From an uncultured virus (IMG/VR IMGVR_UViG_3300028764_000001) (lineage: Duplodnaviria; Heunggongvirae; Uroviricota; Caudoviricetes), in the IMG/VR virus record IMGVR_UViG_3300028764_000001: a DNA stretch of 64,000 nucleotides; one strand, 5' to 3'. The notes under the pieces were generated by a model that was not told the DNA's origin, made no database searches, and saw only the letters and a list, made by a program, of their open reading frames with translations. The position numbers were made by a program, and so were the translations under genes. Positions 29,916 to 45,259 of the stretch are shown here, piece by piece; the first letter of the stretch is position 1; the number at the start of each line of letters is the position of its first letter.

Positions 29916-29928
29916 AAGCGACAACATT

Positions 29929-30117: not shown

Positions 30118-30118
30118 C

Positions 30119-30358: not shown

Positions 30359-30359
30359 C

Positions 30360-30755: not shown

Positions 30756-30773
30756 GTAATAAACCCACCAGCT

Positions 30774-30810
30774 AAGGCCTATTCCATTAAGGGGTAGGCC
30801 TTTTTTGTGG
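30774..30810 (+). terminator. Intrinsic terminator with TTTTTTGTG tail
   Basis: aaggcctattcc-attaa-ggggtaggcctt followed by ttttgtgg. Confidence 0.85.
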
Positions 30811-30954
30811 ATTGAAAAAGTGGATGCAACACCCAATGGCCTCACTTACTAGTATTTCCATATTTACAATGCATATATAATCTTAGCTTGTAAGCATAGT
30901 TTTTACTAGGAAGATTGCCTAACCCTTATTAAATTGATAATATTTTGTATTAAT

Positions 30955-30985
30955 ATATATATGTCAGAAAATATTATTATATTTG
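30955..30985 (+). promoter_or_regulatory. Bacteroidetes sigma-A-type promoter
   Basis: TATATTTG at 30978-30985. Confidence 0.75.
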
Positions 30986-31023
30986 CATATTATTATTTTA
31001 ATCAATTTAAAACTCAACCCAAA

Positions 31024-31356
31024 ATGGCTACAACACAGAAACTTATCAAAACAACATTTGACCTACTTACAGAGCATATGCAGGATCCCCTAATCAACCT
31101 TTATAATAGGTGGCAGGATGAAAAACAATATGAAGACTTTAAGGATTACCAAAAGGTCTTACAGGAGATCTTCAATACTAAAATCAAAGGCAAGGACACC
31201 CAGTGTACTTTAACTTTCACTAAAGCAACAAGAAGACCTTTTGGCATTCAGTTCTGGCTCAGGAATAACAATGTAAAGGAGTTACAAAAACTATCTTATG
31301 AAATGAACGTAACACCCACTACATTTAATACAGTATTAAAAAACATACCCGCATAA
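31024..31356 (+). CDS. Hypothetical early protein
   Basis: Start ATG 31024; YNRWQDEKQYEDFKDY...TRRPFG. Confidence 0.7.
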   Translation: MATTQKLIKTTFDLLTEHMQDPLINLYNRWQDEKQYEDFKDYQKVLQEIFNTKIKGKDTQCTLTFTKATRRPFGIQFWLRNNNVKELQKLSYEMNVTPTTFNTVLKNIPA

Positions 31357-31360
31357 CATT

Positions 31361-31633
31361 ATGGCTACAAAAACTCAATCACTCAACACTCTCAAGAAAG
31401 GTGATTACTTCAAAATGGTAACACCTTTCAAATGTATCATCAAAATCAGTGATGATAAAAAGACCATCAGCCACGTAAATGTACCAGAGAAAATATCTAA
31501 AACAGTATATGTATACGATGGCTGGAACAAATATGGCAGATGCTGGAACTATCACCCCTTTAATAATGCATCCTCTGGTGACATACATACTAAGAACAAA
31601 AACAAACTTGTAACAACAGACTTCGAATTTTAA
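31361..31633 (+). CDS. Hypothetical protein
   Basis: LNTLKKGDYF...TDFEF small beta-rich ORF. Confidence 0.7.
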   Translation: MATKTQSLNTLKKGDYFKMVTPFKCIIKISDDKKTISHVNVPEKISKTVYVYDGWNKYGRCWNYHPFNNASSGDIHTKNKNKLVTTDFEF

Positions 31634-31646
31634 ATACAGAAACATT

Positions 31647-31934
31647 ATGACAGGAAAACAAATTGAAGGCATCATTAAACCTCTACTTGGGCCATACATT
31701 ACAGATGACCGATTTGAAAAAGCTATTAATAAAATCATGACACTACATAACACTGCCATCAACAAAGTTAGGGATAAGGCTAAACCCCATGAAGAAGTAA
31801 AGGAGGAAAGAACATATGAAGATATCATGGGAAAACCACTTTGCCCATTCAGGGGAAATGCTTGCTCCAACACTAACGATGGTAAGAAAGGTAACTGTGC
31901 ACGATGTAGAGTATCTGAAATGTATGACGATTAA
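31647..31934 (+). CDS. Hypothetical protein with C-terminal 4-Cys motif
   Basis: CPF...C...CARC. Confidence 0.65.
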   Translation: MTGKQIEGIIKPLLGPYITDDRFEKAINKIMTLHNTAINKVRDKAKPHEEVKEERTYEDIMGKPLCPFRGNACSNTNDGKKGNCARCRVSEMYDD

Positions 31935-31995
31935 GGCTCAATTTCTAGTACCACTTACCCATCCATAGAAAATTATATTTATTTGAACAATTATA

Positions 31996-32026
31996 GTATT
32001 ATATTGTTTTACTTATATTATCTTTG
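31996..32026 (+). promoter_or_regulatory. Bacteroidetes sigma-A-type promoter
   Basis: TATCTTTG at 32019-32026. Confidence 0.7.
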
Positions 32027-32068
32027 TAATGTCAATTTTATTAATCAATTATTTAAAAACTTTACACA

Positions 32069-32575
32069 ATGACAACAACCACAATCGCAAAGAATGCACA
32101 AGGTGCAGCTCCTGCAACAGATTCCAAAACATCTGCCCCTAAGGCAGAAGTAACCAAAACAGTTAAAGGTTCTAAGGAAACCAAGGAAAAGCTATCAAAG
32201 CCAGTTGAAACAATCAATCTGAAATCAGTTCTGCCGGCACTTGACAAATCCTTATTCATTGAAAAATCACGTGGAGGTAACCGGGAAAATGTTTACCACA
32301 AAGAACTCTTCGAAAACCTTACTGAAAAGGAAAGAAAAACACTCCGGAGAAACATGCGTACAAACCTGGAAAGCTTTGCTTCATCATTCATCGAATTCAA
32401 TACCAAGAAGGAAATTGCGAAACTGAAAAAACTGAAGGACTCCTTCGATGCCTATTACAAAAAGGTATACCGGATCAATGATTTAACCGTTGCCTCCATC
32501 CTGCCGGGAAATGCTGGACCAGAAAAACAAAAGGAAGTTGCTAAGATGCTTGAAATCCTCAAAAGCATAAAGTAA
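32069..32575 (+). CDS. Basic early protein, paralog of 40083..40598
   Basis: LDKSLF...ENVY...RRNMRTNLESFASSFI...VY.INDL...KMLEILK aligns with 40083. Confidence 0.85.
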   Translation: MTTTTIAKNAQGAAPATDSKTSAPKAEVTKTVKGSKETKEKLSKPVETINLKSVLPALDKSLFIEKSRGGNRENVYHKELFENLTEKERKTLRRNMRTNLESFASSFIEFNTKKEIAKLKKLKDSFDAYYKKVYRINDLTVASILPGNAGPEKQKEVAKMLEILKSIK

Positions 32576-32600
32576 CCCACCAGTCAGGGGTCTTATAAGT

Positions 32601-32638
32601 AAAAGGTGGTCCTACTTTGGGACCATTTTTTGTGTGTG
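32601..32638 (+). terminator. Intrinsic terminator with TTTTTTGTGTGTG tail
   Basis: aaaaggtggtcc...ggaccatttt followed by ttgtgtgtg. Confidence 0.85.
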
Positions 32639-32727
32639 AATAGGAACTAGTGATGGCCTATAAAATGTTATCCCATCCCAGGATCCCAACCCCATCCATT
32701 AATGAATGAAAAAAATAAGATAATAAT

Positions 32728-32758
32728 TTTGTATATTCAATATATTATATTAATTTTG
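32728..32758 (+). promoter_or_regulatory. Bacteroidetes sigma-A-type promoter
   Basis: TTTG (32728), 19-nt spacer, TAATTTTG (32751). Confidence 0.8.
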
Positions 32759-32801
32759 AAGAGTAATAAATATACAAACAATTTAAAACCCAACTAATAC
32801 C

Positions 32802-33188
32802 ATGACAGAAACAACATTCAGGTTAAGGATCATCCCTAATCAAGGAGCAAAACCTATATTTGCAGACTTACATAGACTAGACTACGATGCACTGCTAGTT
32901 CAATCCAAGGTAGAGGGGACCTTTAAGGTATACCTGGTTAGATCCATCTTCAACAATGAAAAGGTAAGGATAACACCCATGAAGAAGATACAGAAACATA
33001 TCCACCCTAATCAACCTTTCTTAACTCAGCGGGAGGAGGATATGGCTTGGGGAGCATTAAGAAGGAAACTAGCAGATGATGATAGGAGTATATCCGAAGA
33101 TGATATTAATGGGGCAACAGATAAACTTTTCTATGATGCCCATGGTTTTGAACACAACACATTTGAATACTACCCTATAAAACTATAA
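32802..33188 (+). CDS. Hypothetical early protein
   Basis: 128-aa ORF after a promoter. Confidence 0.7.
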   Translation: MTETTFRLRIIPNQGAKPIFADLHRLDYDALLVQSKVEGTFKVYLVRSIFNNEKVRITPMKKIQKHIHPNQPFLTQREEDMAWGALRRKLADDDRSISEDDINGATDKLFYDAHGFEHNTFEYYPIKL

Positions 33189-33192
33189 TAAA

Positions 33193-34323
33193 ATGAAAAC
33201 AAGAATCCTAACAGAAGAAGAACCATTTGCAGACTTAATCTGTTTTCACCTAAGGAAAGAATTCCCAGGTATTACTACATTAAGTACTTGCGAATTAGTT
33301 GAGGCCTTATCCAATGAGATAATAGGCACCAAGGAAGTAAGGTATGGTTCATTGCCAATACCAGAATCCCTGGTAATTATCAGGGAAGCAATCAGGGATG
33401 CAATCAAAGCTGACCTCCCAATCCCTATATTAGTTCCCTGGGGTAGCATCAAAGCAAACTTTTCAAAGAGCTTAGATATTGCCGAGGTATCTGCAATTCA
33501 AAGGCTAGTACAACTTCAAAACAACATCAAGTCATATTACAAACCTGGAGCAGAAATAGTAATCAGGGTGGAAGATACCTCTGCCTATACCTTATTCTCT
33601 CTGGAAAATGATGGAGAAACTAATAAGAACATTGATTCCTACTCCGGGGATATGCAAACCCTGGTTAATATCCTAAGCCCAGCTGATGGGAGTACTGGAA
33701 GCATAAGAGTACTACTCGAAAGCAGTATGCCCCAAGCTCTTAACTTTAACAGCACAGCCTTCTACAAGAACCAAACGAGGATATACAACTACCTGAGGGC
33801 AACTAGAGATATGGAAGATCCCCAAGAGATGATGGCAACAAAACAGTATGATGTACTTAGAGATAATGGCTGGAAAGGTTACATTTCTAAAGTACAAAGG
33901 GAACACTACCTTTCAAATTACAGAAGGATATATGATTGGGATGAGGATACAAACCTCCATAGGCTATCCTTATACTTTGCAGGTGCCTGGAGAAGGTTCC
34001 AACTTAATATGACCGGGAAACAGGAATATTGGGATAAGTTTATCCAACTGAACTACACTGCCCCCATTAAAGGTTTACCTGAAGGTTACGGATATAATAC
34101 CATATATTATCGAACATTGCCTTTATCAGAAGCAAGGACACATATGAGTCCATGGAGGTCAAAGGGTTACCTTAAGATCAATGGCAACACATTAACCCAT
34201 AAACTTACTACCTGGACGGATACTGAATTAATCAGCAGGCTAACCAAAGTAGATATGGTACTAAGCAATGAAGACAATTCACTATCAGTAATAATTGAGG
34301 CTGACTACTTATTAGAAGCCTAA
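33193..34323 (+). CDS. PvcA/IsnA/DIT1 isonitrile-synthase-like protein
   Basis: PIPILVPWGSIK...LDIAEVSAIQRLVQLQNNIKSYYKPGAEIVIRVED and C-terminal SPW resemble the DIT1_PvcA pattern (PI.fvLPaFPfK...PD.aE...L..l...i...Y.pGa.i.i.sD...tPW). Confidence 0.6.
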   Translation: MKTRILTEEEPFADLICFHLRKEFPGITTLSTCELVEALSNEIIGTKEVRYGSLPIPESLVIIREAIRDAIKADLPIPILVPWGSIKANFSKSLDIAEVSAIQRLVQLQNNIKSYYKPGAEIVIRVEDTSAYTLFSLENDGETNKNIDSYSGDMQTLVNILSPADGSTGSIRVLLESSMPQALNFNSTAFYKNQTRIYNYLRATRDMEDPQEMMATKQYDVLRDNGWKGYISKVQREHYLSNYRRIYDWDEDTNLHRLSLYFAGAWRRFQLNMTGKQEYWDKFIQLNYTAPIKGLPEGYGYNTIYYRTLPLSEARTHMSPWRSKGYLKINGNTLTHKLTTWTDTELISRLTKVDMVLSNEDNSLSVIIEADYLLEA

Positions 34324-34343
34324 AACAAAGGGGGAGGATTACC

Positions 34344-34643
34344 ATGGGTAAGGCAATATATAAGGTGCATCTAGTAAGCACAACACCAATAGCAAAAGAA
34401 ATAGTAGTCCAAGTAAATGAAAGACGTTTGGAAGACCTCAGGGCTATGGCAAAAGACTATGGTCTCTTCACTGTAAACATTAGATCAGGGCCAATTTCAG
34501 TAGGATCCCACCAGCTAAGGCAATCACCACAAAGGCTCATCCTGAGATTCTTTGCAGAACTAAGTGGCATTACCTTTGATTCTAACAATAAGGTAAAACA
34601 TTACCCAGGACAAGGCATAATACCATTTGAGAATCCTCCCTAA
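34344..34643 (+). CDS. Hypothetical protein
   Basis: 99-aa ORF. Confidence 0.6.
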   Translation: MGKAIYKVHLVSTTPIAKEIVVQVNERRLEDLRAMAKDYGLFTVNIRSGPISVGSHQLRQSPQRLILRFFAELSGITFDSNNKVKHYPGQGIIPFENPP

Positions 34644-34656
34644 ACTATAAATAAAT

Positions 34657-34687
34657 TTTGATAATTCAGTATTTATATGTATATTTG
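34657..34687 (+). promoter_or_regulatory. Bacteroidetes sigma-A-type promoter
   Basis: TTTG (34657), 19-nt spacer, TATATTTG (34680). Confidence 0.85.
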
Positions 34688-34710
34688 TAGATAATTAAAA
34701 ATAAATAAAA

Positions 34711-35052
34711 ATGACAATTCCAACTTTAACTCAACCCGCTTTCCTCGAATGGCAACGGAACCATTTTACTGAGGAAGAACAAGTACCAGTTCTTGAATTT
34801 CTATCTGGCCTAGAAGGTGACTCTAAGTTCCTAGAACTACTGCACTATTTCAACCTGGAGTCCTACACTTATTCAATCAACGATGATGAAACCATTTGCT
34901 GGCACAACTTCTCATTTGAAATCATGGCAACAGAATTAACTCATGCCCAGGTATATAAAATCATCCAAGAATTACAGGATGACAATCAACCAGTTCCTGC
35001 ATACTCTTACTATATTGGCTCACTTTACTTAACAATCATAGGACTTGCATAA
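34711..35052 (+). CDS. Acidic hypothetical early protein
   Basis: 113-aa ORF after a promoter. Confidence 0.7.
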   Translation: MTIPTLTQPAFLEWQRNHFTEEEQVPVLEFLSGLEGDSKFLELLHYFNLESYTYSINDDETICWHNFSFEIMATELTHAQVYKIIQELQDDNQPVPAYSYYIGSLYLTIIGLA

Positions 35053-35237
35053 TGAAAACAACAGAAGTAAGGCCTCAGAAACCAGTAGTACCCTACCTTA
35101 GATGGTGGGATAGCTTATCCTACAGTGAACACACTGCTATAATCATAGTAGAGAACATGAGCTATGAACAAACATTAGAACAGTTCAAACAAAACATGTC
35201 ATTCCTATACAACAAATATAAACACTTAATAAAATAA
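35052..35237 (+). CDS. Hypothetical protein
   Basis: TAATG overlap; WWDSLS motif. Confidence 0.6.
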   Translation: MKTTEVRPQKPVVPYLRWWDSLSYSEHTAIIIVENMSYEQTLEQFKQNMSFLYNKYKHLIK

Positions 35238-35240
35238 ACC

Positions 35241-35447
35241 ATGAGCAAAGATCTATCAAACCTCCTAACAGAGATGGTATCATTCGTATCTGGCATTACA
35301 CCAGAAGAAATAGCTAAGGCTAAAGCTAAAGTACTTAAGCCAACTGAATTAAAAAACCTCCATCAACTCCAAAGAGAATGGGCAGAAGGTGCCTATGATG
35401 AAGACCCAGAGACTGTAGTATCTGAACTAAGGCATTACATAAACTAA
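35241..35447 (+). CDS. Hypothetical protein
   Basis: Operon ORF. Confidence 0.65.
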   Translation: MSKDLSNLLTEMVSFVSGITPEEIAKAKAKVLKPTELKNLHQLQREWAEGAYDEDPETVVSELRHYIN

Positions 35448-35455
35448 ACATCCCC

Positions 35456-35614
35456 ATGAAAACAATCAAAGTAATCCTCATCCTCTTTACCCTGGTATTA
35501 ACCAGTTGTGCAACCCCAAAAATCAACAACAGGGGCTTATATAATAAACAAACTACTCATTACCCAAAGCCCATAAATACAGGCAGTATTAACTCTAGCG
35601 GACTACACCAATGA
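35456..35614 (+). CDS. Small lipoprotein (52 aa, absent from ORF track)
   Basis: MKTIKVILILFTLVLTS-C lipobox; stop overlaps the next ATG. Confidence 0.65.
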   Translation: MKTIKVILILFTLVLTSCATPKINNRGLYNKQTTHYPKPINTGSINSSGLHQ

Positions 35615-36012
35615 AAACAATTACCACCACAGCAGAAGCTATTGCTATAGTACTAAAGAAAGCTTGCAACTTTCAGAAATATGCAACAGAAAAAGAACTC
35701 ACAGCACTAACAATTGATAAGGCACAGGATGCACTAATAGAAAGACTTATCAAAGAGTTAGGGCCATTCAAATACACCTACAGTAGGCTTCAAATGTATA
35801 ATGCACTTAAATCTCTAAAGGGTCATCAGTATCAGGGTGTTACACTTGTATTAGAGGAGGAAGAATACAACTACCTAATGGTAACTATACTAGAAGGAGA
35901 TGAATTCTCTACCCCATTCAAAGATCCCATTGAATTACTAATGGAATGGCTAGACGATGGAGAAGATGATTACCAAGTACCAAACCTAGATAATTACAAA
36001 CCAGTCAACTAA
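35611..36012 (+). CDS. Hypothetical protein
   Basis: 133-aa ORF. Confidence 0.7.
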   Translation: MKTITTTAEAIAIVLKKACNFQKYATEKELTALTIDKAQDALIERLIKELGPFKYTYSRLQMYNALKSLKGHQYQGVTLVLEEEEYNYLMVTILEGDEFSTPFKDPIELLMEWLDDGEDDYQVPNLDNYKPVN

Positions 36013-36026
36013 TAACAAAGACTAAT

Positions 36027-36250
36027 ATGAAACTAAGGCTAAAACAATTATTGAGCCATTCAACAGTAACCAGATTAAAGAAGGGCAAACCTTCAAAGTA
36101 GTAAGGGTATACAAATCCTATACTGATCAATATGTAATGGCACTAAAAGGGAATGAGAACTCAGCAATAGTGGCTGTCTCTCTATTACCCTTCTTTGAAG
36201 AGATAATAGAATCACAGGAATCTAATTTCCCACCTACAGATAACATGTAA
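36027..36250 (+). pseudogene. Small gene broken by a 1-nt frameshift (or sequencing error)
   Basis: The ATG 36027 frame stops after 24 aa; the -1 frame is open to TAA 36250 and fills the operon gap. Confidence 0.55.
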
Positions 36251-36254
36251 CAAT

Positions 36255-36521
36255 ATGAACATCAAACAATGGGAACTCATCCAACATAGAGAAGGAACCT
36301 GGCATAGCCTATGTAACAATGCAACACCTCTACCTAAAACAAACAAAGATATGAATAATGAATCAATAGCTTCAATAAATCGATGGTACATTAGCCTGGG
36401 CCGGGAAACCATAACTACATTACACACATGGGTCCTCCACAACCCTAATTCTCCTGAACCCTTCACATGCTATTCATATAGGGAATACTTATATACCACA
36501 TTCCACCAATCCCTCCTATAA
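36255..36521 (+). CDS. Hypothetical protein
   Basis: Operon ORF. Confidence 0.55.
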   Translation: MNIKQWELIQHREGTWHSLCNNATPLPKTNKDMNNESIASINRWYISLGRETITTLHTWVLHNPNSPEPFTCYSYREYLYTTFHQSLL

Positions 36522-36535
36522 AACAAGGAAACATT

Positions 36536-36769
36536 ATGAACATAGGATATAAATACTTAATCTGGGTAACCATCAACATACTAATGATGGTACCCGCCTC
36601 ATACACCATATATAAGTTGATGAATGAAACAAAACAACCTACCTACAAAAGGTACATCGAATGGATTATGGACGATTCTAATAATGGCCTACATGAGACA
36701 TTATACATTGTAGCTGTACTAATCATCCTATGCTTTATCATTGATACCACTATTCTTCTCCCACTCTAA
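36536..36769 (+). CDS. Small membrane protein (2 TM)
   Basis: Two hydrophobic segments. Confidence 0.6.
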   Translation: MNIGYKYLIWVTINILMMVPASYTIYKLMNETKQPTYKRYIEWIMDDSNNGLHETLYIVAVLIILCFIIDTTILLPL

Positions 36770-36790
36770 AACAAAGAAATAATCTAAATT

Positions 36791-36961
36791 ATGATACAAC
36801 CAATAAGCCAATACCAATGGTATAATAACTTAACCAAGGCTGATTCTTATTTCATTTCTAATTACTTATCTAAGTATTACAGTACACTATATGGGGTACA
36901 TCTAACTATGGCTAATGTCATGTACATAGGTTACAGTATGTATCATAAATCTATACATTAA
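36791..36961 (+). CDS. Small hypothetical protein (56 aa, absent from ORF track)
   Basis: MIQPISQYQWYNNLTKADSYF...; last gene before a terminator. Confidence 0.5.
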   Translation: MIQPISQYQWYNNLTKADSYFISNYLSKYYSTLYGVHLTMANVMYIGYSMYHKSIH

Positions 36962-37022
36962 AGGTACATCAAACCAAGGTACATTATACAACATTCTTAT
37001 ACATTAATCTAATAAGCTAATC

Positions 37023-37062
37023 AAAGGTCTTCATGGATATCTGTCCGTGGGGATTTTTTGTG
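37023..37062 (+). terminator. Intrinsic terminator with TTTTTTGTG tail
   Basis: aaaggtcttcatggata-tc-tgtccgtggggatttt followed by ttgtg. Confidence 0.75.
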
Positions 37063-37140
37063 ATCGAAATCTGAGGACTCTGTCACAGCCTTCCAGCCAT
37101 AGTCTACTATAGCTCTACAGCGATAAAGCCAATCCTCTTA

Positions 37141-37420
37141 AGGTACCTTAAATGAGGCCTCAAAAAGGCCTTTTCAGAGCTTTTTACTAGGGTAAAGCTA
37201 AGGGTAAAAAGGCAGAGGATTGGTGAGGATTAAGGTACATTTAAGGCCCATAGGATTCGATGTTTTAAGGCCCAAATGTCACCAGCTATGGCCCCTTAGG
37301 ATGTAGGCTTAGGCCATAAATTAATAAGGGAATAAGGCCTTTATTAGCCCCATTAGGAAGTAAATTTATTCACCATGGATGGCCCCAAAGGTAAAAGGTA
37401 TTAAGGAAATATGGCCTATA
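37141..37420. repeat. Non-coding GGCC array 1 (9 sites)
   Basis: GGCC at 37156, 37167, 37245, 37269, 37290, 37312, 37336, 37381, 37413. Confidence 0.85.
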
Positions 37421-37530
37421 TACCTACCCATTCCAAGTAAAAGCTTTAATTGCAAAGGTATATTATCTTAGCCAGTTAACTTACATTTTACTAGGAATCA
37501 TACCTAATCCTTAAATAATGATATAAAAAG

Positions 37531-37561
37531 ATTGTATATACAATATATTATATTATCTTTG
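37531..37561 (+). promoter_or_regulatory. Bacteroidetes sigma-A-type promoter
   Basis: TTG...TATCTTTG at 37554-37561. Confidence 0.8.
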
Positions 37562-37606
37562 TGTATTCAATTATTATATACAACAATTTTAAAAATGACT
37601 AAACTT

Positions 37607-38077
37607 ATGGCCACAACCAAATTTGCTTTAATCGTATTAACCTCAAAGGTTGATCCTTCCATTACCCAGTATAATGATAACAGTGATGATCACCATTGCC
37701 TATGCAATTGCCTATCCCGTTCTACTGATAAACCTTTTCTAGAGGAGGAAGCTAGAAGACTAAGTACCCTTAATGATAATACTTATAAGGTAATTAAAAC
37801 TACTGATCTCACTATTTTAAAGGGATTTACAGAAGTCCTTTCTAAGGAATGCTTAATCATAGAAGATTGGGAACACTTCGACACTTCAGAAAAGCCAGAT
37901 AAGGAATTCTCAGAACAACTTGCAAAAGATCCCCTAGATGCTTACCTTGAAGAAGCCAGGAAAAGGAACTACACTGAGCTATCAGATAAGATAGAACATG
38001 GTAAGAACCTAATGGATGCCTTACATATCTTCGATCAAATATGCATCATTGCTTACATTAAATCAATCACTAAATAA
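37607..38077 (+). CDS. Hypothetical early protein
   Basis: Start 37607 (or 37595); leader acaacaattttaaaaatgactaa is identical to the one before 39028. Confidence 0.7.
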   Translation: MATTKFALIVLTSKVDPSITQYNDNSDDHHCLCNCLSRSTDKPFLEEEARRLSTLNDNTYKVIKTTDLTILKGFTEVLSKECLIIEDWEHFDTSEKPDKEFSEQLAKDPLDAYLEEARKRNYTELSDKIEHGKNLMDALHIFDQICIIAYIKSITK

Positions 38078-38088
38078 AACTACATCAA

Positions 38089-38478
38089 ATGAAAACAATC
38101 AACCCTTGCTTGGTAATCCTTATTGCCATTCCCCTACTTATTTCCCTTGCTTGCTATTCCCAAGTTCCCTGGAAGGATAACATCCATAACCCAGATAATG
38201 CAGATTACATTGCTGAGGTTGCCTTTAACCTGGATCTCCCAGACTCTATGGTAACCCAATCCTTATTTAACGAAAGGTATCTGCCTTCATACCAAATGGG
38301 CAGACCCAGGGTAATCTACAAGAAGCCTAAAGCTAAAAGAGATTCCACTACTAATATAACTTATATAGATGGCTACGTAAGATACCCAGTATACGTTACC
38401 CGGAACAATAAGGTATATATATCAAGGATATCGAAGAAGGGGAACTATTATAGGAAGTATATATCCTTAGCCCAATGA
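38089..38478 (+). CDS. Hypothetical exported/membrane-anchored protein
   Basis: N-terminal hydrophobic segment ending SLAC; basic C-terminus. Confidence 0.65.
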   Translation: MKTINPCLVILIAIPLLISLACYSQVPWKDNIHNPDNADYIAEVAFNLDLPDSMVTQSLFNERYLPSYQMGRPRVIYKKPKAKRDSTTNITYIDGYVRYPVYVTRNNKVYISRISKKGNYYRKYISLAQ

Positions 38479-38669
38479 AAATGATCTTAGTGATTTATCC
38501 AATACCCTGGTCTAGGGTAAGGCCAATGCCCATAATAGTATTTGCCTCAGGTATGGTATTAATAATCCTTCCAGCATGGCTATTCCAATTATCAGTTAAG
38601 GAACAGAATGAGACTATAGAATCATATAAACCTTTAAACATTACACCTCATGAAGAAGACATCACCTAA
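38475..38669 (+). CDS. Small membrane protein
   Basis: ATGA overlap; hydrophobic core. Confidence 0.5.
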   Translation: MKMILVIYPIPWSRVRPMPIIVFASGMVLIILPAWLFQLSVKEQNETIESYKPLNITPHEEDIT

Positions 38670-38774
38670 GAATGAACTGGGCTTTGGCATTATAATACTT
38701 ATCATTGCCATCTGCTGTATACTTGCATTTACTTAAAGTGTTCACTACACTGACAAAGGCTACCTAAGCCTTAT

Positions 38775-38822
38775 TAGGATCTTGAGTTTTTAGTCATTCT
38801 CAAGATCCTATTTTTGTGTGTG
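38775..38822 (+). terminator. Intrinsic terminator with TTTTTGTGTGTG tail
   Basis: taggatcttgag...ctcaagatccta followed by tttttgtgtgtg. Confidence 0.85.
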
Positions 38823-38858
38823 AAAGCCACTAGCTATGCACTTGCTTCGGAAGGTTCA

Positions 38859-38941
38859 GGCCTTTATATGCTCCGTAGATGGCCCTAATGTTATTTTGTA
38901 TTTAGAGGCAAGGCCTACATCTCAGGCTTACCTTTAGGGCC
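38859..38941. repeat. Non-coding GGCC array 2 (4 sites)
   Basis: GGCC at 38859, 38881, 38912, 38938. Confidence 0.7.
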
Positions 38942-38950
38942 CTAATTAAA

Positions 38951-38982
38951 TTTGTATATATGAAATAAAATGATTATATTTG
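38951..38982 (+). promoter_or_regulatory. Bacteroidetes sigma-A-type promoter
   Basis: TTTG (38951), 20-nt spacer, TATATTTG (38975). Confidence 0.85.
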
Positions 38983-39027
38983 TAGACTATAATAATATAG
39001 TAACAACAATTTTAAAAATGACTAATT

Positions 39028-39444
39028 ATGCAAAACCTACAAAATTTTACCCAACTCCTTGCCCAACAAATCCTGGATAACCCAGTACCAGACATGGATG
39101 ATGCCCTAACCTCTGAAGGACAGATCATAATGGACTTCCCTGGTTACTCAAGTATGGAACTATCTGTAATACTGGTTGAACACTCTACACCAATGGGTCT
39201 CTCACTTGCCATACTCTTAACCGAGGACGATACCGAAGAAAATACTAACTTCTATACTGAACTCTACGAAGGTATTCTCACCATCGCTGCCATACTAAGG
39301 GACTACCTAGAATCCATCTTTTCAGAAAATACCAACTCTGATGCCTGCTCATTCTCTATAAACTGGGACACTCACCATGGTGCTCAACCTGGGGAAGACG
39401 GACTTTGGGAACTAACCCTGAATATAACGGATTACCTTTCATAA
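39028..39444 (+). CDS. Very acidic early protein (no Lys, one Arg)
   Basis: 138-aa monocistronic cassette, D/E-rich. Confidence 0.75.
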   Translation: MQNLQNFTQLLAQQILDNPVPDMDDALTSEGQIIMDFPGYSSMELSVILVEHSTPMGLSLAILLTEDDTEENTNFYTELYEGILTIAAILRDYLESIFSENTNSDACSFSINWDTHHGAQPGEDGLWELTLNITDYLS

Positions 39445-39465
39445 CCAGCTACCTAGCTACCTACA

Positions 39466-39502
39466 AAAGGTACCCTTATTACTTGGGTACCTTTCTTGTG
39501 TG
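39466..39502 (+). terminator. Intrinsic terminator with TTGTGTG tail
   Basis: aaaggtaccc...gggtaccttt followed by cttgtgtg. Confidence 0.8.
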
Positions 39503-39529
39503 ATTACCTTTCAAACCCACTAGCTACAG

Positions 39530-39790
39530 GTGTTAGGCCTTCAGCATCTGGCCTTATAGAACTCAGGATGAGGGGCCTTATTGAATCCATTGATGGCCTT
39601 TTTCTAAAAGCCACCGGCTACGAGGGCCCAGCGGTAAAGATTAGGCCCTATTGGGATTTAAAGCTTTCTCCATCTATGGCCCTGCCCAGGCATAAGGAGC
39701 ATGGGATTTAGGGGATAAAGTATAGGCCTTAGATGGATAGAGATAAGGTACCTAAACCTTTCAAAGCCAGGAGCTAAGGCATCGTAACCA
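39530..39790. repeat. Non-coding GGCC array 3 (8 sites)
   Basis: GGCC at 39536, 39550, 39574, 39595, 39625, 39644, 39678, 39725. Confidence 0.85.
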
Positions 39791-40015
39791 CAACGCATTT
39801 CCCAATATGCATGTAATAAAAATATGTCATTTTTTAATGTCATTTTGTTGTATTCTTTTAACTATTACATTAATGTTTTTTAACTGTCAAAATAATTTAT
39901 ATTTAAAAAAATAAACTACTTTTGAAATGTCAAACGGACAAAGATTTTTCTTTTTTACTTTGTACTGATTACAAAAACGCTCTTTGAATTTTTTTATTTA
40001 TTTTTTATCAAAAAA

Positions 40016-40046
40016 ATATCTATTAAAAAGAAAAACTATATATTTG
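40016..40046 (+). promoter_or_regulatory. Bacteroidetes sigma-A-type promoter
   Basis: TATATTTG at 40039-40046. Confidence 0.7.
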
Positions 40047-40082
40047 ATTTTTTATAAAACAACAATCTAAATTTAAAAAAAA

Positions 40083-40598
40083 ATGACTACATTAAGCAGT
40101 GACTCAAAAAACGTTATTAATGCAAATAACGAAATTTCAAAAGCAATTGAAACAAGTTTAAAAAAATCTACTAATAAAGTAGAGAAAAAAGAAGTTGTAA
40201 AAAAAGATTTGAAAAAAGAAGCTACAACAACAAAAGCAAATGAGTATTTGCTTTCTATGCTAGATAAAAGTTTATTTGTTTCTAATTCGGGAATGAGTAA
40301 AGAAAATATTTATAAAGCTTCTATTTTTGCAACATGCATTACTGACAGAGATAAAAAAACAATCCGTAGAAAAATACGCAATAATATGGATAGTTTTATT
40401 AGTTCTTTTATTTCGTATGAAACAAATAAAAATACTGATAAAATTAAAAAACTATTGACTGCATTTAAAGACTTTTACACAAATGTATATTCTTTAAATG
40501 ATTATTCATTAAATAGTTTAATTAGTGCGAACACTGATACTGTAAAAAAGGATAATGTTATTAAAATGCTTTCAATTATCAAAAAGTATGACAAATAG
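40083..40598 (+). CDS. Basic early protein, paralog of 32069..32575
   Basis: LDKSLF...ENIY...RRKIRNNMDSFISSFI...VYSLNDY...KMLSIIK. Confidence 0.85.
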   Translation: MTTLSSDSKNVINANNEISKAIETSLKKSTNKVEKKEVVKKDLKKEATTTKANEYLLSMLDKSLFVSNSGMSKENIYKASIFATCITDRDKKTIRRKIRNNMDSFISSFISYETNKNTDKIKKLLTAFKDFYTNVYSLNDYSLNSLISANTDTVKKDNVIKMLSIIKKYDK

Positions 40599-40610
40599 TT
40601 TTATCATTCA

Positions 40611-40651
40611 AATAACAACATACATAGTGTATGTTGTTATTATTTCTTTTT
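40611..40651 (+). terminator. Intrinsic terminator built without GG/CC
   Basis: aataacaacatac-atagt-gtatgttgttatt followed by atttcttttt. Confidence 0.75.
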
Positions 40652-40694
40652 ATCTAATTAATTTAGTAGTTAAGCATTTTAATAATAAAAAAGC

Positions 40695-40952
40695 ATGAAT
40701 ATAAATAATGATATTAATTTAGAACAACATTCAATATATAAAGATTTTGTTAAACAATATAATATTACATTGCTATCTTTTTATATTGATTTGAATTGTA
40801 GTGTAATGTTATTTAGTTATGATAATTTAGATATAAAATATCAATTGAATAAAGATTTATTCATACATGAAATATCTATTTATTTTGATTGTTTAGATAT
40901 TGAATTGATAAATATTTGTAGTGATAAATTCTTATTATCAATTGAATTTTAA
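40695..40952 (+). CDS. Hypothetical protein lacking Gly, Pro and Trp
   Basis: 85-aa ORF with no GG or CC dinucleotide. Confidence 0.6.
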   Translation: MNINNDINLEQHSIYKDFVKQYNITLLSFYIDLNCSVMLFSYDNLDIKYQLNKDLFIHEISIYFDCLDIELINICSDKFLLSIEF

Positions 40953-40972
40953 ATTATTATTAAATCAATTTT

Positions 40973-41030
40973 AAAGTACATTTAAAGGACTATTATTAAT
41001 GTCCCCTATAAATGTACTTTAATTTTTTTT
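40973..41030 (+). terminator. Intrinsic terminator-like hairpin
   Basis: aaagtacattta...taaatgtacttt followed by aatttttttt. Confidence 0.7.
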
Positions 41031-41201
41031 ATATGCAAACACCGTCCCCCTATTCCACACAGAGATCCCACACTGCCTCGTATAAGGTTCGAACCCATTA
41101 GGTGATACCCTCCCAATGATTACCTTCCCACTATCCTACCAAGCCCACTTCCCATAAAAAATATCCAGCACTTTTCATCCCTCGTATAAGCTCTCTTACC
41201 T

Positions 41202-41244
41202 CACACAAAAAAGGTAGAGTTAACTTCCCAGTCTACCCTACCTT
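41202..41244 (-). terminator. Minus-strand terminator with TTTTTTGTGTG tail
   Basis: The reverse complement reads aaggtagggtagact-ggga-agttaactctacctt followed by ttttgtgtg. Confidence 0.75.
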
Positions 41245-41299
41245 ATAAAATCAATCCAGATCTTTTACTCAACCGTTGTTCAAATAATATTCAAAAAAA

Positions 41300-41545
41300 T
41301 CAAATTATGCGGGGTTTCCTAAACCCTTTGGATATTAATATAGTCAATATCATTCCCACCAATATAACCTCTAGCAAAGGAGAGAATACCCAAATAGTAA
41401 TCAAGGATAACATACTCAATGTATCTTGCTTTATCCCCTTTCTCCTTACTCCCCCATCCATAAAGAAAAGAAAAGTAACAAATACCAACCCTATAATATA
41501 GCCTAACCATAGGCATATCATACCAAACGTATATAGAGCTCCCAT
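41300..41545 (-). CDS. Small membrane protein (2 TM)
   Basis: Two hydrophobic helices; start overlaps the upstream stop. Confidence 0.6.
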   Translation of the reverse strand: MGALYTFGMICLWLGYIIGLVFVTFLFFMDGGVRRKGIKQDTLSMLSLITIWVFSPLLEVILVGMILTILISKGFRKPRII

Positions 41546-42087
41546 TATACTAAGGATTGTTCTATGAGTTTAACTAATAACTTTGCTCTAGAGGTTACCT
41601 CAGTCTTCCCATGGGCACTAGTGTGAGATGAGTAATCACCCTGTCCTGGTTTAATACCTCGGTAGTAGGTACATTCCTCTTTGGTAAGGATCTCATGTAC
41701 CTGGGTCTTTTCATATACATTTGAACCATCATCCCCAAAGGTTAATTTCTCTGGTAACATTTCCCATAGTTCCCCTGAGGTATATGCAGGGATTAAAGGG
41801 ATATCCTCATACCAATCACTTTCATCTACCATACACCATACCTCTTTGGTATTAGGTTCTAGGAAGTATTCATGCTTTTCAGTAGGACTAAGTTCCTTAA
41901 CCCTCCAGAAGTTAGCTGGCATAAAATTGTTGAACTTCCCTGAACCATATATCTTCATACATAATTCTGGATTTAAAATACCCTGTTCTAATCCCATAGT
42001 AGGGGTAGCCAATTGGTCATAATCTAAGGTTTCATCTGGCTTGTATGCCGATAGATGAAACCTTACTGGTTTTGTTTTAGCTTCCAT
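41545..42087 (-). CDS. Hypothetical protein
   Basis: IPAYTSGELWEMLPEKL...SRAKLLVKL pattern; 180 aa. Confidence 0.75.
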   Translation of the reverse strand: MEAKTKPVRFHLSAYKPDETLDYDQLATPTMGLEQGILNPELCMKIYGSGKFNNFMPANFWRVKELSPTEKHEYFLEPNTKEVWCMVDESDWYEDIPLIPAYTSGELWEMLPEKLTFGDDGSNVYEKTQVHEILTKEECTYYRGIKPGQGDYSSHTSAHGKTEVTSRAKLLVKLIEQSLV

Positions 42088-42181
42088 AAGAATAAGTTTA
42101 TTAATTAGTAATACAATTTAATTATAAGACAAAGAAAATTACTAGAACACTATTTAGATTATGCAGGATTTACCCTTTTAT

Positions 42182-42649
42182 TCAATCTGGCATATCTATT
42201 TTTCTATAATGGGTAACCAATGAATCTGATATACCCCACCTTTCCGGCCCCCAAGTAAGGAATACCATACAATTAGAGGTTTTAGTTACAAGGTACCTCC
42301 CATAATCATCAGGGTAATGGCCCTTTAACTGAGGTTCATATTCTATCCAATCAGTTTCATGTCTGATTGGGATAGAATAAGCCTCACATTTCTTGTAGTG
42401 GATAGCTTTAGCCATCCCTTGGTTAACTATTAGGTCTAAATCCTTTACCATACCCAAGATTAAGTCATATTGACTCTTCTCATGGAAGTATAAAGGGCCA
42501 TATTTTATAAGAAAGGCCTTATAAGCAGAGGTCAAAGAGAATTTAGGGTCCCTTTTAATGGATTTGTCCACTACTAATACAACTCTTTCTAAGACTGATA
42601 AATGATTATCAGACATTAGGATGGTAGTTATAGCATCTGTTTTATTCAT
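42182..42649 (-). CDS. Hypothetical protein with C-terminal DUF551-like segment
   Basis: DWI...PDDYGRYLVT...VTHYRKIDMP. Confidence 0.6.
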   Translation of the reverse strand: MNKTDAITTILMSDNHLSVLERVVLVVDKSIKRDPKFSLTSAYKAFLIKYGPLYFHEKSQYDLILGMVKDLDLIVNQGMAKAIHYKKCEAYSIPIRHETDWIEYEPQLKGHYPDDYGRYLVTKTSNCMVFLTWGPERWGISDSLVTHYRKIDMPD

Positions 42650-42980
42650 TACCCTTAATCTCTTTAGCCCACTCTTCTAGCCATTGAACTACATTAGTAT
42701 CCTCAGGTGTATCAAATTTAAAACTAAATGTAATAGTTTCAGGATTTTCTAGGCTTAATTCCTTAACTTTAGCTAAATACCAAGCCTCTTTATCCAAATC
42801 CTGCTGAATAAGGCTAAGACTTAAACCTTTTAAGCCAATTCTCATCCTGTATTTAAATGCATTCATTATACAGAAGTCAATGGTACTCTTGTAACCCCAG
42901 ATATTTAACATCATATCAATTACTTCTACTGGGTACTGGTTATAGTGAGATGGGTGATTTACTTGTTCTTCTTTACTCAT
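42642..42980 (-). CDS. DUF3310 protein (T7 gp1.7-like nucleotide kinase family)
   Basis: EQVNHPSHY...EVID...NAFKYRMRIGLK...QDLDKEAWYL. Confidence 0.85.
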   Translation of the reverse strand: MSKEEQVNHPSHYNQYPVEVIDMMLNIWGYKSTIDFCIMNAFKYRMRIGLKGLSLSLIQQDLDKEAWYLAKVKELSLENPETITFSFKFDTPEDTNVVQWLEEWAKEIKGNE

Positions 42981-42982
42981 AA

Positions 42983-43666
42983 TTAAAATGTTGTATCATA
43001 GGTTATATCATCAAATACAATAGGTACCAGTTTCTGGAACTGTCTTAATAATGGGCACATGAGTTCCCTCATCTGTGGATGAGCTACCTTTTGAGCACGT
43101 TGTTTGAAAATAGTTCTCCATTCCCTTAGGTTAGCAGTAATCACTATCTCAGTTTTCAGTGCATTAGGTAATACTGATCTAGCTTCCTGAGCAACCCAAC
43201 CTTCTTTTAATAAATCCAGGTAAACCTGTTCACTGTTAGACATTGAGTGATACCATAATTTGGTAACCCTATCAATCTTCATGTAGTTGTGTTCATTGAG
43301 GATTTTAACTAAGTCAAGTTGTTCATCACTAAGCCAGAATGGCTGGATGAATGTAAGCTCATTACCAAACTTTTCCTTTGCATAATTACAGTACCTTGTA
43401 CTTTCCTGGGAAAATGACGCAATTCGATGACGTACTAATTCATGGGAGATACCCCGGTCACATACAAATAAAACTGAAATTGACTGATGTTCTAGTACTG
43501 ATTCATGGCCAAGTTGTATTAACTTAGCAATAAACTTCTCAGCACTTTCATCAGTAATAAGTTCTTCACTCTTGTAACAGGTTCTTCCTGCACGTTCAAT
43601 GCTCTGTATAATTGTCTTGCCATTAATATCTGACAAGATCTGGGTAGATGGTTTAATTAATTTCAT
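42983..43666 (-). CDS. thyX: Flavin-dependent thymidylate synthase
   Basis: GHESVLEH, RGISHELVRHRIASFSQESTRY, ARSVLP, NLREWR, AHPQMR. Confidence 0.97.
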   Translation of the reverse strand: MKLIKPSTQILSDINGKTIIQSIERAGRTCYKSEELITDESAEKFIAKLIQLGHESVLEHQSISVLFVCDRGISHELVRHRIASFSQESTRYCNYAKEKFGNELTFIQPFWLSDEQLDLVKILNEHNYMKIDRVTKLWYHSMSNSEQVYLDLLKEGWVAQEARSVLPNALKTEIVITANLREWRTIFKQRAQKVAHPQMRELMCPLLRQFQKLVPIVFDDITYDTTF

Positions 43667-43667
43667 G

Positions 43668-44102
43668 TTATGTTATTATTATGTTAAACTTCTTGGATAA
43701 TTTCTTTAGCTTCTTGTAGATTGTCACTGTATCTTCTCTGGCAAGAGAATCAATACCAGTTGATATTGCATTCAACAGTGTTTTCATACTCTGTTTTGCA
43801 ATGCGGTATTGATATTCTTTCTCTACTTCATCACTCCATAATTTATATGTAGCATTAACATTGGTTACACCCAAACGGGTTAATACTCCATTAGAGTGAA
43901 TTATGGCTGATAATTTAACTTGGTTACCAAGCAAGGCTACCTTAGTTTCTCGGTTAACCTCTTTTACAAAAGACTTATCAACTGTATATTGAGTAACGCA
44001 TAATATTTCATCTCCAATACGAAGTAATACTTCCGGAGCTTTTACAAAAGGAATTTTTGGTGTATCCCGTACAACCATAGAGTTTTTCTTCTTCTTTGCC
44101 AT
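43668..44102 (-). CDS. Hypothetical protein
   Basis: 144-aa ORF heading the minus-strand block. Confidence 0.7.
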   Translation of the reverse strand: MAKKKKNSMVVRDTPKIPFVKAPEVLLRIGDEILCVTQYTVDKSFVKEVNRETKVALLGNQVKLSAIIHSNGVLTRLGVTNVNATYKLWSDEVEKEYQYRIAKQSMKTLLNAISTGIDSLAREDTVTIYKKLKKLSKKFNIIIT

Positions 44103-44215
44103 GTTCTAGTTAGTTTATTAATTATATATAACAATATGATCAGGGTAGTACCAACTAGAAAACTATTTGCAATACCACTATGGCCATATATATAATAATA
44201 ACTAACTCATTCTAT

Positions 44216-45259
44216 ATGAATAAACTTAGAGTACTTGGAGTATGCCAAGGGCAAGGTGCGTTACTCTTCCCACTTAGAAAGCACCTAATTGGTAATGTAG
44301 AACCAAGGGGATGTTTCCATACACCAAATGAAGAACAATGGAGGATAAACTTCGGGGATATACCATTTGTACGCAAGATTGATCAACTAAATCTACCCAA
44401 ATATGTTGATATTATAATAGGTTCACCTAACTGTGGTACTAGCAGTATACTATCCTACTCTCGTAAGAAGACCCTGGGCAAACCAAAAGAGGATGAAAGC
44501 ATCAATACCTTCATTACTATAACCCAGCAATTACAACCTAAGGTATTCCTTATGGAAAATCTACCAAAGCTTTTAGACTTCATAACACAAGGAGAATGGG
44601 AAACTCTATTCCTGGATTATGACTTAATCTTCCATACATCTTCAGTAATGGAGTATGGCAATTCCCAAAAGAGTAGGGTAAGGCTTACATTAATAGGTGT
44701 TCGAAAAGGCTTGTCTAGTTTTAAATTAGAAGCATTCCAAAGAGTTTTCAAAGTACGTGATGTTAAGTTTACTAGAGAGCTTCTAGAAGACACTAGGTTA
44801 TTACCTAAATTCTTTCCAATGAATGGAAACATACGGGAATTAAGTTCTCATAAAGTTTGTATGTATGATTATCGAGATGGCCTTAAAACTAAACTGGGCC
44901 TCAAAGAGATAAAGAAATTATGGGTAGGCGATTTTAAGGAGTGTTATAAATGGCCAATCAATTCTGCTAAGATGAAAACCCTACCTGGTGTTTATCGTAA
45001 TAAACCAGATGGGTACCCTATGACTGCTAGAAAACAAGATAGGCAGTTTAAACCAAACGGTGAGATCATGAGCCCAGCTGAATTAGCTGTAATCCAGGGT
45101 TATCCATTGAAGTATAAAATATACTGCATTGATACTGATACTAAGGAAAGGAACTATTGGATTAATAAAGGTAGGGTATCAATCACTAAGGGTCCCTCCT
45201 ATGAAATAGGGTTATGGTTTAAAAAATGTCTACGGAAATCCCTCCTCGCGGGCGTCTAA
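44216..45259 (+). CDS. Divergent DNA cytosine-C5 methyltransferase-fold protein
   Basis: Motif I variant VLGVCQGQGA, IV IIIGSPNCG, VI FLMENLP, VIII QKSRVRLTLIG, IX ELAVIQGYP; motif X is atypical. Start ATG 44216. Confidence 0.8.
   Translation: MNKLRVLGVCQGQGALLFPLRKHLIGNVEPRGCFHTPNEEQWRINFGDIPFVRKIDQLNLPKYVDIIIGSPNCGTSSILSYSRKKTLGKPKEDESINTFITITQQLQPKVFLMENLPKLLDFITQGEWETLFLDYDLIFHTSSVMEYGNSQKSRVRLTLIGVRKGLSSFKLEAFQRVFKVRDVKFTRELLEDTRLLPKFFPMNGNIRELSSHKVCMYDYRDGLKTKLGLKEIKKLWVGDFKECYKWPINSAKMKTLPGVYRNKPDGYPMTARKQDRQFKPNGEIMSPAELAVIQGYPLKYKIYCIDTDTKERNYWINKGRVSITKGPSYEIGLWFKKCLRKSLLAGV

Follow-up and report, generated by a model that had tools for sequence, protein, structure and literature searches.

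Rows of GGCC sites between terminators and promoters of small-gene cassettes in an uncultured tailed phage: possible docking arrays for a DNA-binding protein

Rows of short repeats that gather a protein on DNA are familiar from several systems. The iterons of plasmid replicons are 17–22 bp long and well conserved within a replicon; the omega heptads, ParR/parC and StbA/stbDR are rows of 5–10 short repeats 5′ of promoters to which small proteins bind cooperatively; and GATC sites recur in number at oriC and at P1 pac. Dam methylation is required at P1 pac (PMC12707154). The PeSLs of T4-type phages are described in PMC4122927 as composite terminator/promoter motifs in hyperplastic regions, and phi29 p6, a small and abundant early protein, coats DNA at 24 bp per dimer, switches early promoters and replication, and recognizes a bendability pattern rather than a sequence (PMC10899789). 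Here we describe three non-coding arrays of the tetranucleotide GGCC in a 64,000-nucleotide stretch of DNA (IMG/VR record IMGVR_UViG_3300028764_000001; hereafter, the window) that represents most of the genome of an uncultured tailed phage. Judged by title or abstract, none of the papers listed for GGCC in intergenic phage repeats and promoters bears on such arrays, and the matches listed for CCATTAATGG were eukaryotic CArG boxes or unrelated oligonucleotides.

Array 1 (37138–37430) contains nine GGCC (at 37156, 37167, 37245, 37269, 37290, 37312, 37336, 37381, and 37413), array 2 (38820–38955) contains four (38859, 38881, 38912, and 38938), and array 3 (39505–39790) contains eight (39536, 39550, 39574, 39595, 39625, 39644, 39678, and 39725); all 21 positions and the gaps between them are exactly those of the preliminary description of this DNA. 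The sites also exceed a background preserving GG and CC: in dinucleotide-preserving shuffles made for each span, which keep the GG, GC, and CC counts, the means were 3.1 for array 1 (0 of 2000 shuffles reached nine), 1.1 for array 2 (22 of 2000 reached four), and 3.0 for array 3 (6 of 2000 reached eight). The three spans as counted (37141–37430, 38820–38950, and 39500–39790) total 712 bp, for which the GGCC frequency elsewhere in the window predicts 0.96 sites and local dinucleotide shuffles predict ∼7.3. The GC content of the spans, earlier put at one-third, is 41–47%. In the window, 20 gaps of 100 bp or more separate open reading frames (ORFs); of these, only the three with arrays hold four or more GGCC, with three in the gap at 30756–30960, and other long spacers of the genome hold zero or one. 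A minor cluster of four GGCC lies at 30739–30841, two of which form a terminator (AAGGCCTA...TAGGCCTTTTTT) containing CCAGCTAAGGCC, a word found in relatives too.

Elsewhere GGCC is close to neutral. The whole window contains 106 copies against 118 expected, and with the arrays excluded the maximal-order Markov observed/expected ratio (O/E) is 0.92 (z −1.0), as compared to 0.99 in a complete 79.5-kb relative. GATC is strongly avoided in both (O/E 0.58 and 0.09, respectively), and in the complete relative (L137–L140) so is CTAG (O/E 0.5). GGCC, GCGC, and CCGG are not avoided. This pattern indicates that the hosts exert a restriction pressure specific to GATC. Because GGCC is neutral outside the arrays, these represent a local accumulation and not, as had been proposed, a reversal of restriction-site avoidance. 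The interspersed AGGTAC/GGTA words that had been reported are present, with 7 of 25 AGGTAC and 5 of 24 GGTACC copies falling in 36.5–40 kb, but GGTACC is not over-represented relative to its sub-words (O/E 0.99).

The arrays recur in relatives. We examined loci anchored on the large terminase (TerL; the best 80 of 583 confirmed relatives) and a second set of 51 loci anchored on the protein encoded at 40083–40598 of the window (P0001; + strand, 171 aa, gene ∼24% GC), the only array-adjacent gene common to relatives. The 89 regions upstream of its homologs collapsed to 20 non-redundant groups, among which there was no alignment, the flanks being unalignable. A DNA search of a phage collection with the window region returned no match. 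By tblastn, the genes common to 33–48 kb of the window and six relatives were limited to that for P0001, a methyltransferase gene, the gene at 45376, and the terminase. A P0001 homolog was present in 52 of 78 terminase loci; in 49 of these the sequence reached 645 bp or more upstream of it, and every one of the 49 had at least three GGCC between −700 and −200. In the P0001-anchored set, one to three clusters occur within 1.5 kb upstream, with far fewer sites downstream. Pooled, GGCC is the top enriched 4-mer (169 versus the 45.4 predicted by the remainder of these loci) and occurs in 20 of 20 groups; between −1200 and −200, there were 136 GGCC as compared to 56.5±6.5 in dinucleotide shuffles (maximum 78 in 300 shuffles), with every group above its own mean and 12 of 20 individually at ≤5%. 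The preliminary description was to be abandoned if GGCC density fell within a GG/CC-preserving background or if relatives lacked arrays; neither holds, because the count exceeds that background and all 20 lineages are enriched upstream of the P0001 homolog.

In the complete relative, GGCC peaks in the homologous 4 kb (5, 10, 0, and 13 per kb) and rises to a lesser degree near 72 and 77 kb, most other kilobases having 0–2. Within the clade with 72% TerL identity (30 loci), DNA identity is 91.5% in the array block, 93.2% in the AT-rich promoter tract that follows array 3, 89.4% in the P0001 gene, 95.6% in TerL, and 65% in the cassette just upstream. The array block is thus conserved like coding DNA, and array 3, the AT-rich promoter tract, and the P0001 gene form a unit kept in relatives. 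L017-type loci carry two haplotypes of the array block at about −700 to −390 from the P0001 homolog, in which a 30–45 bp segment is replaced, one with the palindrome GGGATATATCCC and the other with GGGCAATAATA...GCTAAT.

Every array is bounded by a terminator-like hairpin and by the promoter region of a small ORFan cassette; the promoters are marked by TAnnTTTG, the Bacteroidota-type consensus. Array 1 opens with a 14-bp palindrome, TTAAGGTACCTTAA (37138–37151), and its first two GGCC build a terminator-like hairpin (AGGCCT-CAAAA-AGGCCT-TTT; 37155–37174, stem-loop to 37171). The promoter region of cassette 1 (37554–37602, + strand) has a TAnnTTTG box at 37554 and a 23-nt exact repeat, ACAACAATTTTAAAAATGACTAA, at 37580–37602; cassette 1 itself (37595–38669, + strand) comprises three ORFans (37595–38077, 38089–38478, and 38475–38669) and is closed by a + strand hairpin at 38776–38809 (11-bp stem, 12-nt loop, then ATTTTTG). 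Array 2 begins 11 bp past this hairpin and ends ∼20 bp short of the box at 38975 in the cassette 2 promoter region (38975–39025, + strand), which has the second ACAACAATTTTAAAAATGACTAA copy at 39003–39025. Cassette 2 (39028–39444, + strand), a single ORFan of 138 aa, is closed by a + strand hairpin at 39466–39494 (10-bp stem AAAGGTACCC/GGGTACCTTT, 9-nt loop), after which array 3 follows. Between array 3 and the P0001 gene lies the AT-rich tract (39800–40082, + strand; 16% GC, a value that also applies to 39844–40082), with boxes at 39917 and 40039. Short repeats are common to several spacers of the genome. The cassette proteins matched no family and, in the viral collection, only identical copies elsewhere. 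Because contigs from several independent runs end or diverge inside cassette 1 (at 37835 and 38037/38089), a spot at which assemblies break, the cassettes vary between strains; one record in the viral collection begins at 38111.

Only the 4-mer was earlier held to be conserved among the sites. A GGCC core is common to all of them, but degenerate longer repeats are also present in the window arrays (TCnCCAnnnATGGCCCy, five copies; AAAsCCAsnrGCTA, four copies; GGCCCTAAT, three copies), as is a strand-specific motif. The latter, tCCATTnATGGCCyy (class I), occurs in every array, with five of five copies on the + strand: TCACCAGCTATGGCCCCT (37279–37296), TCACCATGGATGGCCCCA (37370–37387), CTCCGTAGATGGCCCTAA (38871–38888), ATCCATTGATGGCCTTTT (39585–39602), and TCTCCATCTATGGCCCTG (39667–39684). 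The five copies of CCNNNNATGGCC in the window are all on the + strand and all in arrays, with 1.15 expected and 0 of 100 shuffles reaching five. Four + strand start boxes of the AAAsCCAsnrGCTA type (AAAGCCACTAGCTA at 38823–38836 and further copies at 39513–39526, 39607–39620, and 39763–39776) each open a unit of ∼90–150 bp with ∼4 GGCC, in which the box is followed by one to three TTAGGCCY-type sites and then one ATGGCC-type site; a population variant returns the box at 39607 to consensus. Array 3 is flanked on both sides by a 21-nt direct repeat (39506–39526 and 39756–39776; 86% alike). Spacing between neighboring sites in the window centers on 21–26 bp, and the gaps of array 3 range from 14 to 47 bp.

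Across the family, the positions flanking GGCC are strand-symmetric (−1: A83, T45, G35, C5; +4: T81, A37, C44, G6) and so suit recognition of a palindrome on duplex DNA. The class I motif has 48 non-redundant anchored instances (unanchored positions A31, T40, and T31 of 48) and, over the 20 groups, is oriented with the genes in 19 cases and against them in 2; ten groups have + strand copies and one has − strand copies only. Other clades, including the complete relative, are without it and have instead GGTRCC seven bases 5′ of GGCC, so that GGTRCC-N6-GGCC is found at 13 of 99 sites as compared to 1.3 expected. A fixed GGCC core with clade-specific extensions is the pattern expected of sites co-evolving with their reader.

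Taken together, we read the arrays as DNA-level, iteron-like docking rows for a sequence-specific DNA-binding protein that controls or insulates the cassettes. The enrichment of the sites, their position, their conservation with unalignable flanks, the symmetry of the positions next to GGCC, and the oriented motif are observed directly; protein binding, the identity of the reader, and the regulatory outcome are what we infer from them, and because the outcome is inferred and no reader was found, we assign this reading a probability of only about 40%. The reader would probably be phage-encoded. GGCC would serve as the invariant core of each docking site, and the clade-specific, partly oriented contexts (class I and GGTRCC-N6-GGCC) would confer specificity. 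The rows fill the DNA that separates a terminator from the host-type promoter after it in a variable small-gene region, where one protein may coat the spacers and thereby act as switch, timer, or insulator for the cassette promoters and the P0001 gene. Of the platforms proposed in the preliminary description, one for protein binding remains the best reading given the flank symmetry, enrichment, and conservation.

A number of observations weigh against docking. The gaps had been called helical, close to multiples of 11 bp; a marginal periodicity does exist in the family (Rayleigh R 0.27 near 10.4 bp, 78 gaps; p = 0.023 against a jitter null), but in the window it falls short (R 0.48 at 11.5 bp, 17 gaps; p = 0.068 against the same null), and the preferred phase is ∼4 bp rather than 0 and stems partly from shared terminators with a 14-bp gap. 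Helical phasing is accordingly weak. In a wedge model, phased GGCC and A-tracts do not raise the predicted curvature of the arrays (means 11.4, 7.3, and 9.3 versus 9.8±5.2 for the window), with one peak at 37184. Most sites have only ∼6 informative positions in common, which is little for a specific protein, and the distance from array to promoter varies from ∼35 to 315 bp, making for a poor fit to a fixed activator geometry. In the close clade, single GGCC sites decay to AGCC, and GGCC columns, in a block that is conserved throughout, score 0.958 against 0.856 overall and ∼0.95 for the block core, barely above their surroundings. A variant contig of the window retains six of seven sites (no more than chance, ∼0.18). 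Finally, P0001, a small, basic, all-helical protein whose family is confined to phage-like contigs, is not an obvious DNA binder. AlphaFold2 models it as a bundle of helices (pLDDT 73) that weakly resembles ribosomal protein bS20 and has no recognizable DNA-binding fold; Foldseek returned no PDB match at E≤0.001, and in the Atlas it matched only unnamed viral clusters.

A replication origin is an unlikely alternative. The GGCC rows would be initiator iterons, the 16%-GC tract by array 3 an unwinding element, and arrays 1 and 2 auxiliary clusters like P1 incA or P4 crr. The order of array 3, a 280-bp tract of 16% GC, and a conserved gene is family-wide and suggestive; the 21–24 bp spacing is like that of plasmid iterons; the longer motif is oriented in the manner of direct repeats; and the array region has the sole negative GC skew on the + strand gene train. 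However, no DnaA box with ≤1 mismatch occurs in 34686–42790 (within 2 kb of any array), no initiator-like gene adjoins the arrays, the neighbors being without a Rep-like family, and the arrays lie off the GC-skew turning points (∼26 and 44–46 kb here; ∼10 and 21 kb in the complete relative), so nothing marks the origin suggested earlier, nor do the contigs mark a packaging or injection-stop site. In addition, all three arrays precede promoters, the AT-rich tract itself contains promoter boxes, and that tract adjoins array 3 only, arrays 1 and 2 having just their own promoter tracts. As for a shared repeat, an oriented 14–18 nt motif is present in five copies, all on the + strand, but most sites have only GGCC and two flank positions in common. 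As side observations, the GC skew is negative across ∼17 kb (27000–44000) despite + strand genes at 27–41 kb, and the complete relative has the same negative skew over ∼11 kb around its own arrays.

GGCC is a classic target of 5-methylcytosine (m5C) modification, and the window encodes a cytosine-5 DNA methyltransferase-like protein (44180–45259, + strand; 4.4 kb from the arrays), a candidate reader or writer of GGCC. That this enzyme methylates GGCC and that the clusters are read by their methylation state, timing replication, packaging, or promoters, is in our estimate improbable. In its favor, the gene appears to be of the right kind: its model (pLDDT 87) has a C5-methyltransferase fold that matches the CP-933R methyltransferase, DNMT1, M.HhaI, and M.HaeIII (all at TM ∼0.6), and it retains the catalytic Cys, the ENL motif, and QxRxR-like motifs. 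It is moreover a core gene, with a match in 9 of the 10 relatives' records examined. Avoidance of GATC with no avoidance of GGCC is compatible with self-protection at the latter, and the Dam requirement at P1 pac (PMC12707154) offers a precedent. On the other hand, phmmer, profile, and fold searches for the specificity of the enzyme stop at the catalytic core or fold level: sequence matches to M.HhaI and M.HaeIII are limited to the core, M.HaeIII ranks only 12th in the fold search, and the target-recognition part matches no characterized enzyme. The enzyme is found with dense and sparse arrays alike, which means that the two do not covary, and 4–9 kb, including a block on the opposite strand, separate the arrays from the terminase genes. 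By analogy to GATC/SeqA at oriC or Dam at P1 pac, one could go further and imagine GGCC arrays as a recurrent, convergent m5C clock of AT-rich phages, written by their own methyltransferase and read by a methylation-sensitive protein; we consider this quite improbable, but if it were true, entered, replicating, and mature phage DNA would be distinguished and early cassettes, replication, or packaging switched accordingly.

Signals acting on the non-template strand or in RNA (back-up terminators, pause sites, or loading of a NusG-like antiterminator, for which ops/RfaH is the model) strike us as no more probable than methylation gating. The class I motif is strand-specific, with 19 copies running along the gene strand and 2 against it, the arrays begin at or just past terminators, and the phage encodes a NusG-like protein (14633–15346; Pfam NusG at E = 3e-4, short of the curated threshold, and phrog_6386 “transcription antiterminator” at E = 1e-5). 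Within the family, 33 of 169 sites fall in stems of at least 6 bp as compared to 16±4.5 with shuffled flanks, 13 of these being terminator-like, and the flanks of adjacent sites are slightly more complementary than those of random pairs (0.86 versus 0.56; p = 0.006). However, 80% of sites lie outside any hairpin, and in the window just 2 of 21 (37156 and 37167) are in a GC-rich hairpin followed by a T tract, so we rejected intrinsic terminators, which would account for only the 13 of 169, as the identity of the arrays. The arrays fold with z-scores of −1.2, +0.4, and −2.1; in 92-nt windows around the 48 class I sites, the + strand folds no better than the − strand (z −0.99 versus −1.31), and a CCAT/ATGG mini-hairpin occurs in just 8 of 48. 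The RNAalifold covariation term is −0.07, and the 2 of 64 pairs scored as compensatory both fall in one L017-type block and reflect its two haplotypes. Moreover, the arrays are upstream rather than downstream of recognizable promoters, and one lineage has the class I motif inverted. No Rfam match at gathering score or at E≤1 was obtained in the arrays, and ARAGORN reported no tRNA there at default, 90%, or 80% thresholds; its tRNA-Gln and tmRNA-like calls at 90%/80% lie within the cassettes, and at 70% scattered calls overlap the arrays. With no family, covariation, or + strand fold preference, a structured RNA or tRNA identity was likewise rejected.

It is possible to view the spacer blocks as homology patches for cassette swapping, in the manner of T4-type PeSLs, and such a role would be compatible with the other readings. 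Hypervariable cassettes do lie beside the conserved array block (65% versus 91.5% identity), spacers share within-genome repeats that include the 23-nt exact repeat, and contigs of other runs break inside cassettes. In the close clade, 13.9% of homology junctions fall ≤6 bp from a GGCC (n = 552, non-independent), as compared to 5.0% of random and 6.7% of random intergenic positions. Nonetheless, 86% of junctions are away from GGCC, and this roughly two-fold enrichment is mild for a site-specific recombination point. Because homology patches need no GGCC, recombination leaves the retention of this word across unalignable lineages unexplained, and as an account of the arrays we think it has about as slim a chance as the m5C clock.

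Slimmer still is the chance that the sites are functionless by-products, either left over from terminator stems that have decayed or due to some peculiarity of spacer composition. The 6-mers with the highest enrichment (GGCCTT and AGGCCT) are typical terminator half-stems, close relatives have single sites decayed to AGCC, and GGCC is neutral in the rest of the genome; against this, all 20 of 20 lineages remain enriched over dinucleotide shuffles, neither the oriented 14-nt motif nor the clade-specific composites resemble terminator halves, the array block is conserved as coding DNA, and other long spacers of the same genome hold zero or one GGCC. Least supported of all are the decoy and injection-stop ideas of the preliminary description, the former because its premise, avoidance of GGCC elsewhere, fails.

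The remainder of the window gives the setting of the arrays. Replication genes occupy 1–16 kb and include DNA polymerase A (4565–6886), a RecA/UvsX-like protein (8665–9813), and SbcCD-like proteins (11327–14054); a gp32-like protein, a 5′–3′ exonuclease, and a PDDEXK resolvase are also encoded, and the module holds a Cpn10/GroES-like protein and an HNH endonuclease (7359–7769 and 1472–1978). A T4-type TerL (46077–47579) and a capsid protein (51127–52254) follow further along. The + strand carries nearly all genes, with the exception of a block at 41300–44102 that includes a DUF3310 “nucleotide kinase” (42642–42980, minus strand) and ThyX (42983–43666, minus strand), for which tblastn against the six relatives gave no match at E≤1e-4. 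With a MazG/dUTPase_2-like pyrophosphohydrolase (2038–2862) and a thymidylate-synthase-like protein (3788–4549), these make up a nucleotide-metabolism set (2038–4549 and 42642–43666) that, together with the C5-methyltransferase-like gene, could indicate modified bases.

Around the arrays, the word (A)AGGTACAT recurs at 36895, 36963, 36978, and 37234, with TGTACAT at 36923; the stretch lies just 5′ of array 1 and partly within a 56-aa ORF (36791–36961). On the other side, 39800–41030 is an island of ∼19% GC in a genome of 35% GC that holds the AT-rich promoter tract, the P0001 gene, a long AT hairpin terminator (40611–40641), and an 85-aa ORF (40695–40952). The non-coding tract that follows (41030–41295) closes the + strand gene train and leads up to the minus-strand block that converges on it. 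Its + strand is rich in C but poor in G (C 85, G 25; CC 35, GG 3), which is the composition of a Rho-utilization site; similar G-poor tracts occur near the arrays of relatives (e.g., L091 3300–3400).

Start-codon contexts, with a Shine-Dalgarno-like word at 3 of 53 starts, and the TAnnTTTG boxes 5′ of cassette genes point to a Bacteroidota style of host. TerL relatives in metagenome bins bear assorted Bacillota labels, which we set aside because phage contigs are not reliably binned. By terminase, the nearest phages in the database (71–73% identity) are uncultured and come from faecal and rat material, with one lacking an informative source, and the window DNA is present as contigs in 24 runs labeled peat metagenome, none of them listed as RNA. 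In outline the phage is similar to the “Flandersviridae” as described in PMC8008677 (polA, Bacteroides hosts, and a variable locus of unknown ORFs).

The regulatory DNA of uncultured phages is nearly all unread, and these arrays are recognizable from sequence alone and kept in at least 20 lineages. They mark the borders of fast-changing accessory cassettes, the expected place of host-takeover and anti-defense genes. To identify the reader of the GGCC rows would open a way into how a widespread phage group controls its early genes, and perhaps into how it replicates or senses methylation, and the clade-specific composite motifs offer a direct route to it via covariation.

PeSLs, iterons, methylation-site clusters, and phi29 p6 are the nearest described systems, and none fits fully. 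Like the iterons of P1 oriR/incA, F, RK2, and P4 ori/crr, the arrays are oriented clusters of short repeats about two helical turns apart, with an AT-rich tract and a small gene adjoining and with site and reader specificity that drifts between lineages; unlike them, only 4–14 nt are conserved here, and neither a Rep-like gene nor a DnaA box was found near the arrays. Operator arrays of ribbon-helix-helix and partition proteins are also rows of repeats upstream of promoters, but theirs are contiguous or have an 11-bp period, as compared to a spacing of 14–47 bp here, and neither a protein of these kinds nor a partition gene was found. With the GATC clusters of oriC/SeqA and of P1 pac, the arrays share a 4-bp palindromic word of the methyltransferase type that is dense within 150–300 bp, and the phage carries a candidate DNA methyltransferase of its own; they differ in the word (GGCC, of the m5C type, rather than GATC, of the N6-methyladenine type) and in forming three clusters rather than one. 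The 21–26 bp spacing in the window, with a conserved gene for a small, basic protein alongside, suggests an analogy to phi29 p6 (PMC10899789), although P0001 bears no similarity to p6 in Foldseek or Atlas searches. The PeSL, as summarized in PMC4122927, is just a stem-loop and a promoter, whereas the spacers here have an additional 130–290 bp with 4–9 GGCC-core sites, belong to another phage lineage with another promoter type (TAnnTTTG), and show only mild enrichment of junctions at the sites; yet in both, spacers made of a terminator and an early promoter, with short repeats in common, flank small ORFans that swap as cassettes in a variable region, a layout laid out here in the hairpins at 37155–37171, 38776–38809, and 39466–39494, the boxes at 37554, 38975, and 40039, and the ORFan cassettes that accompany them.

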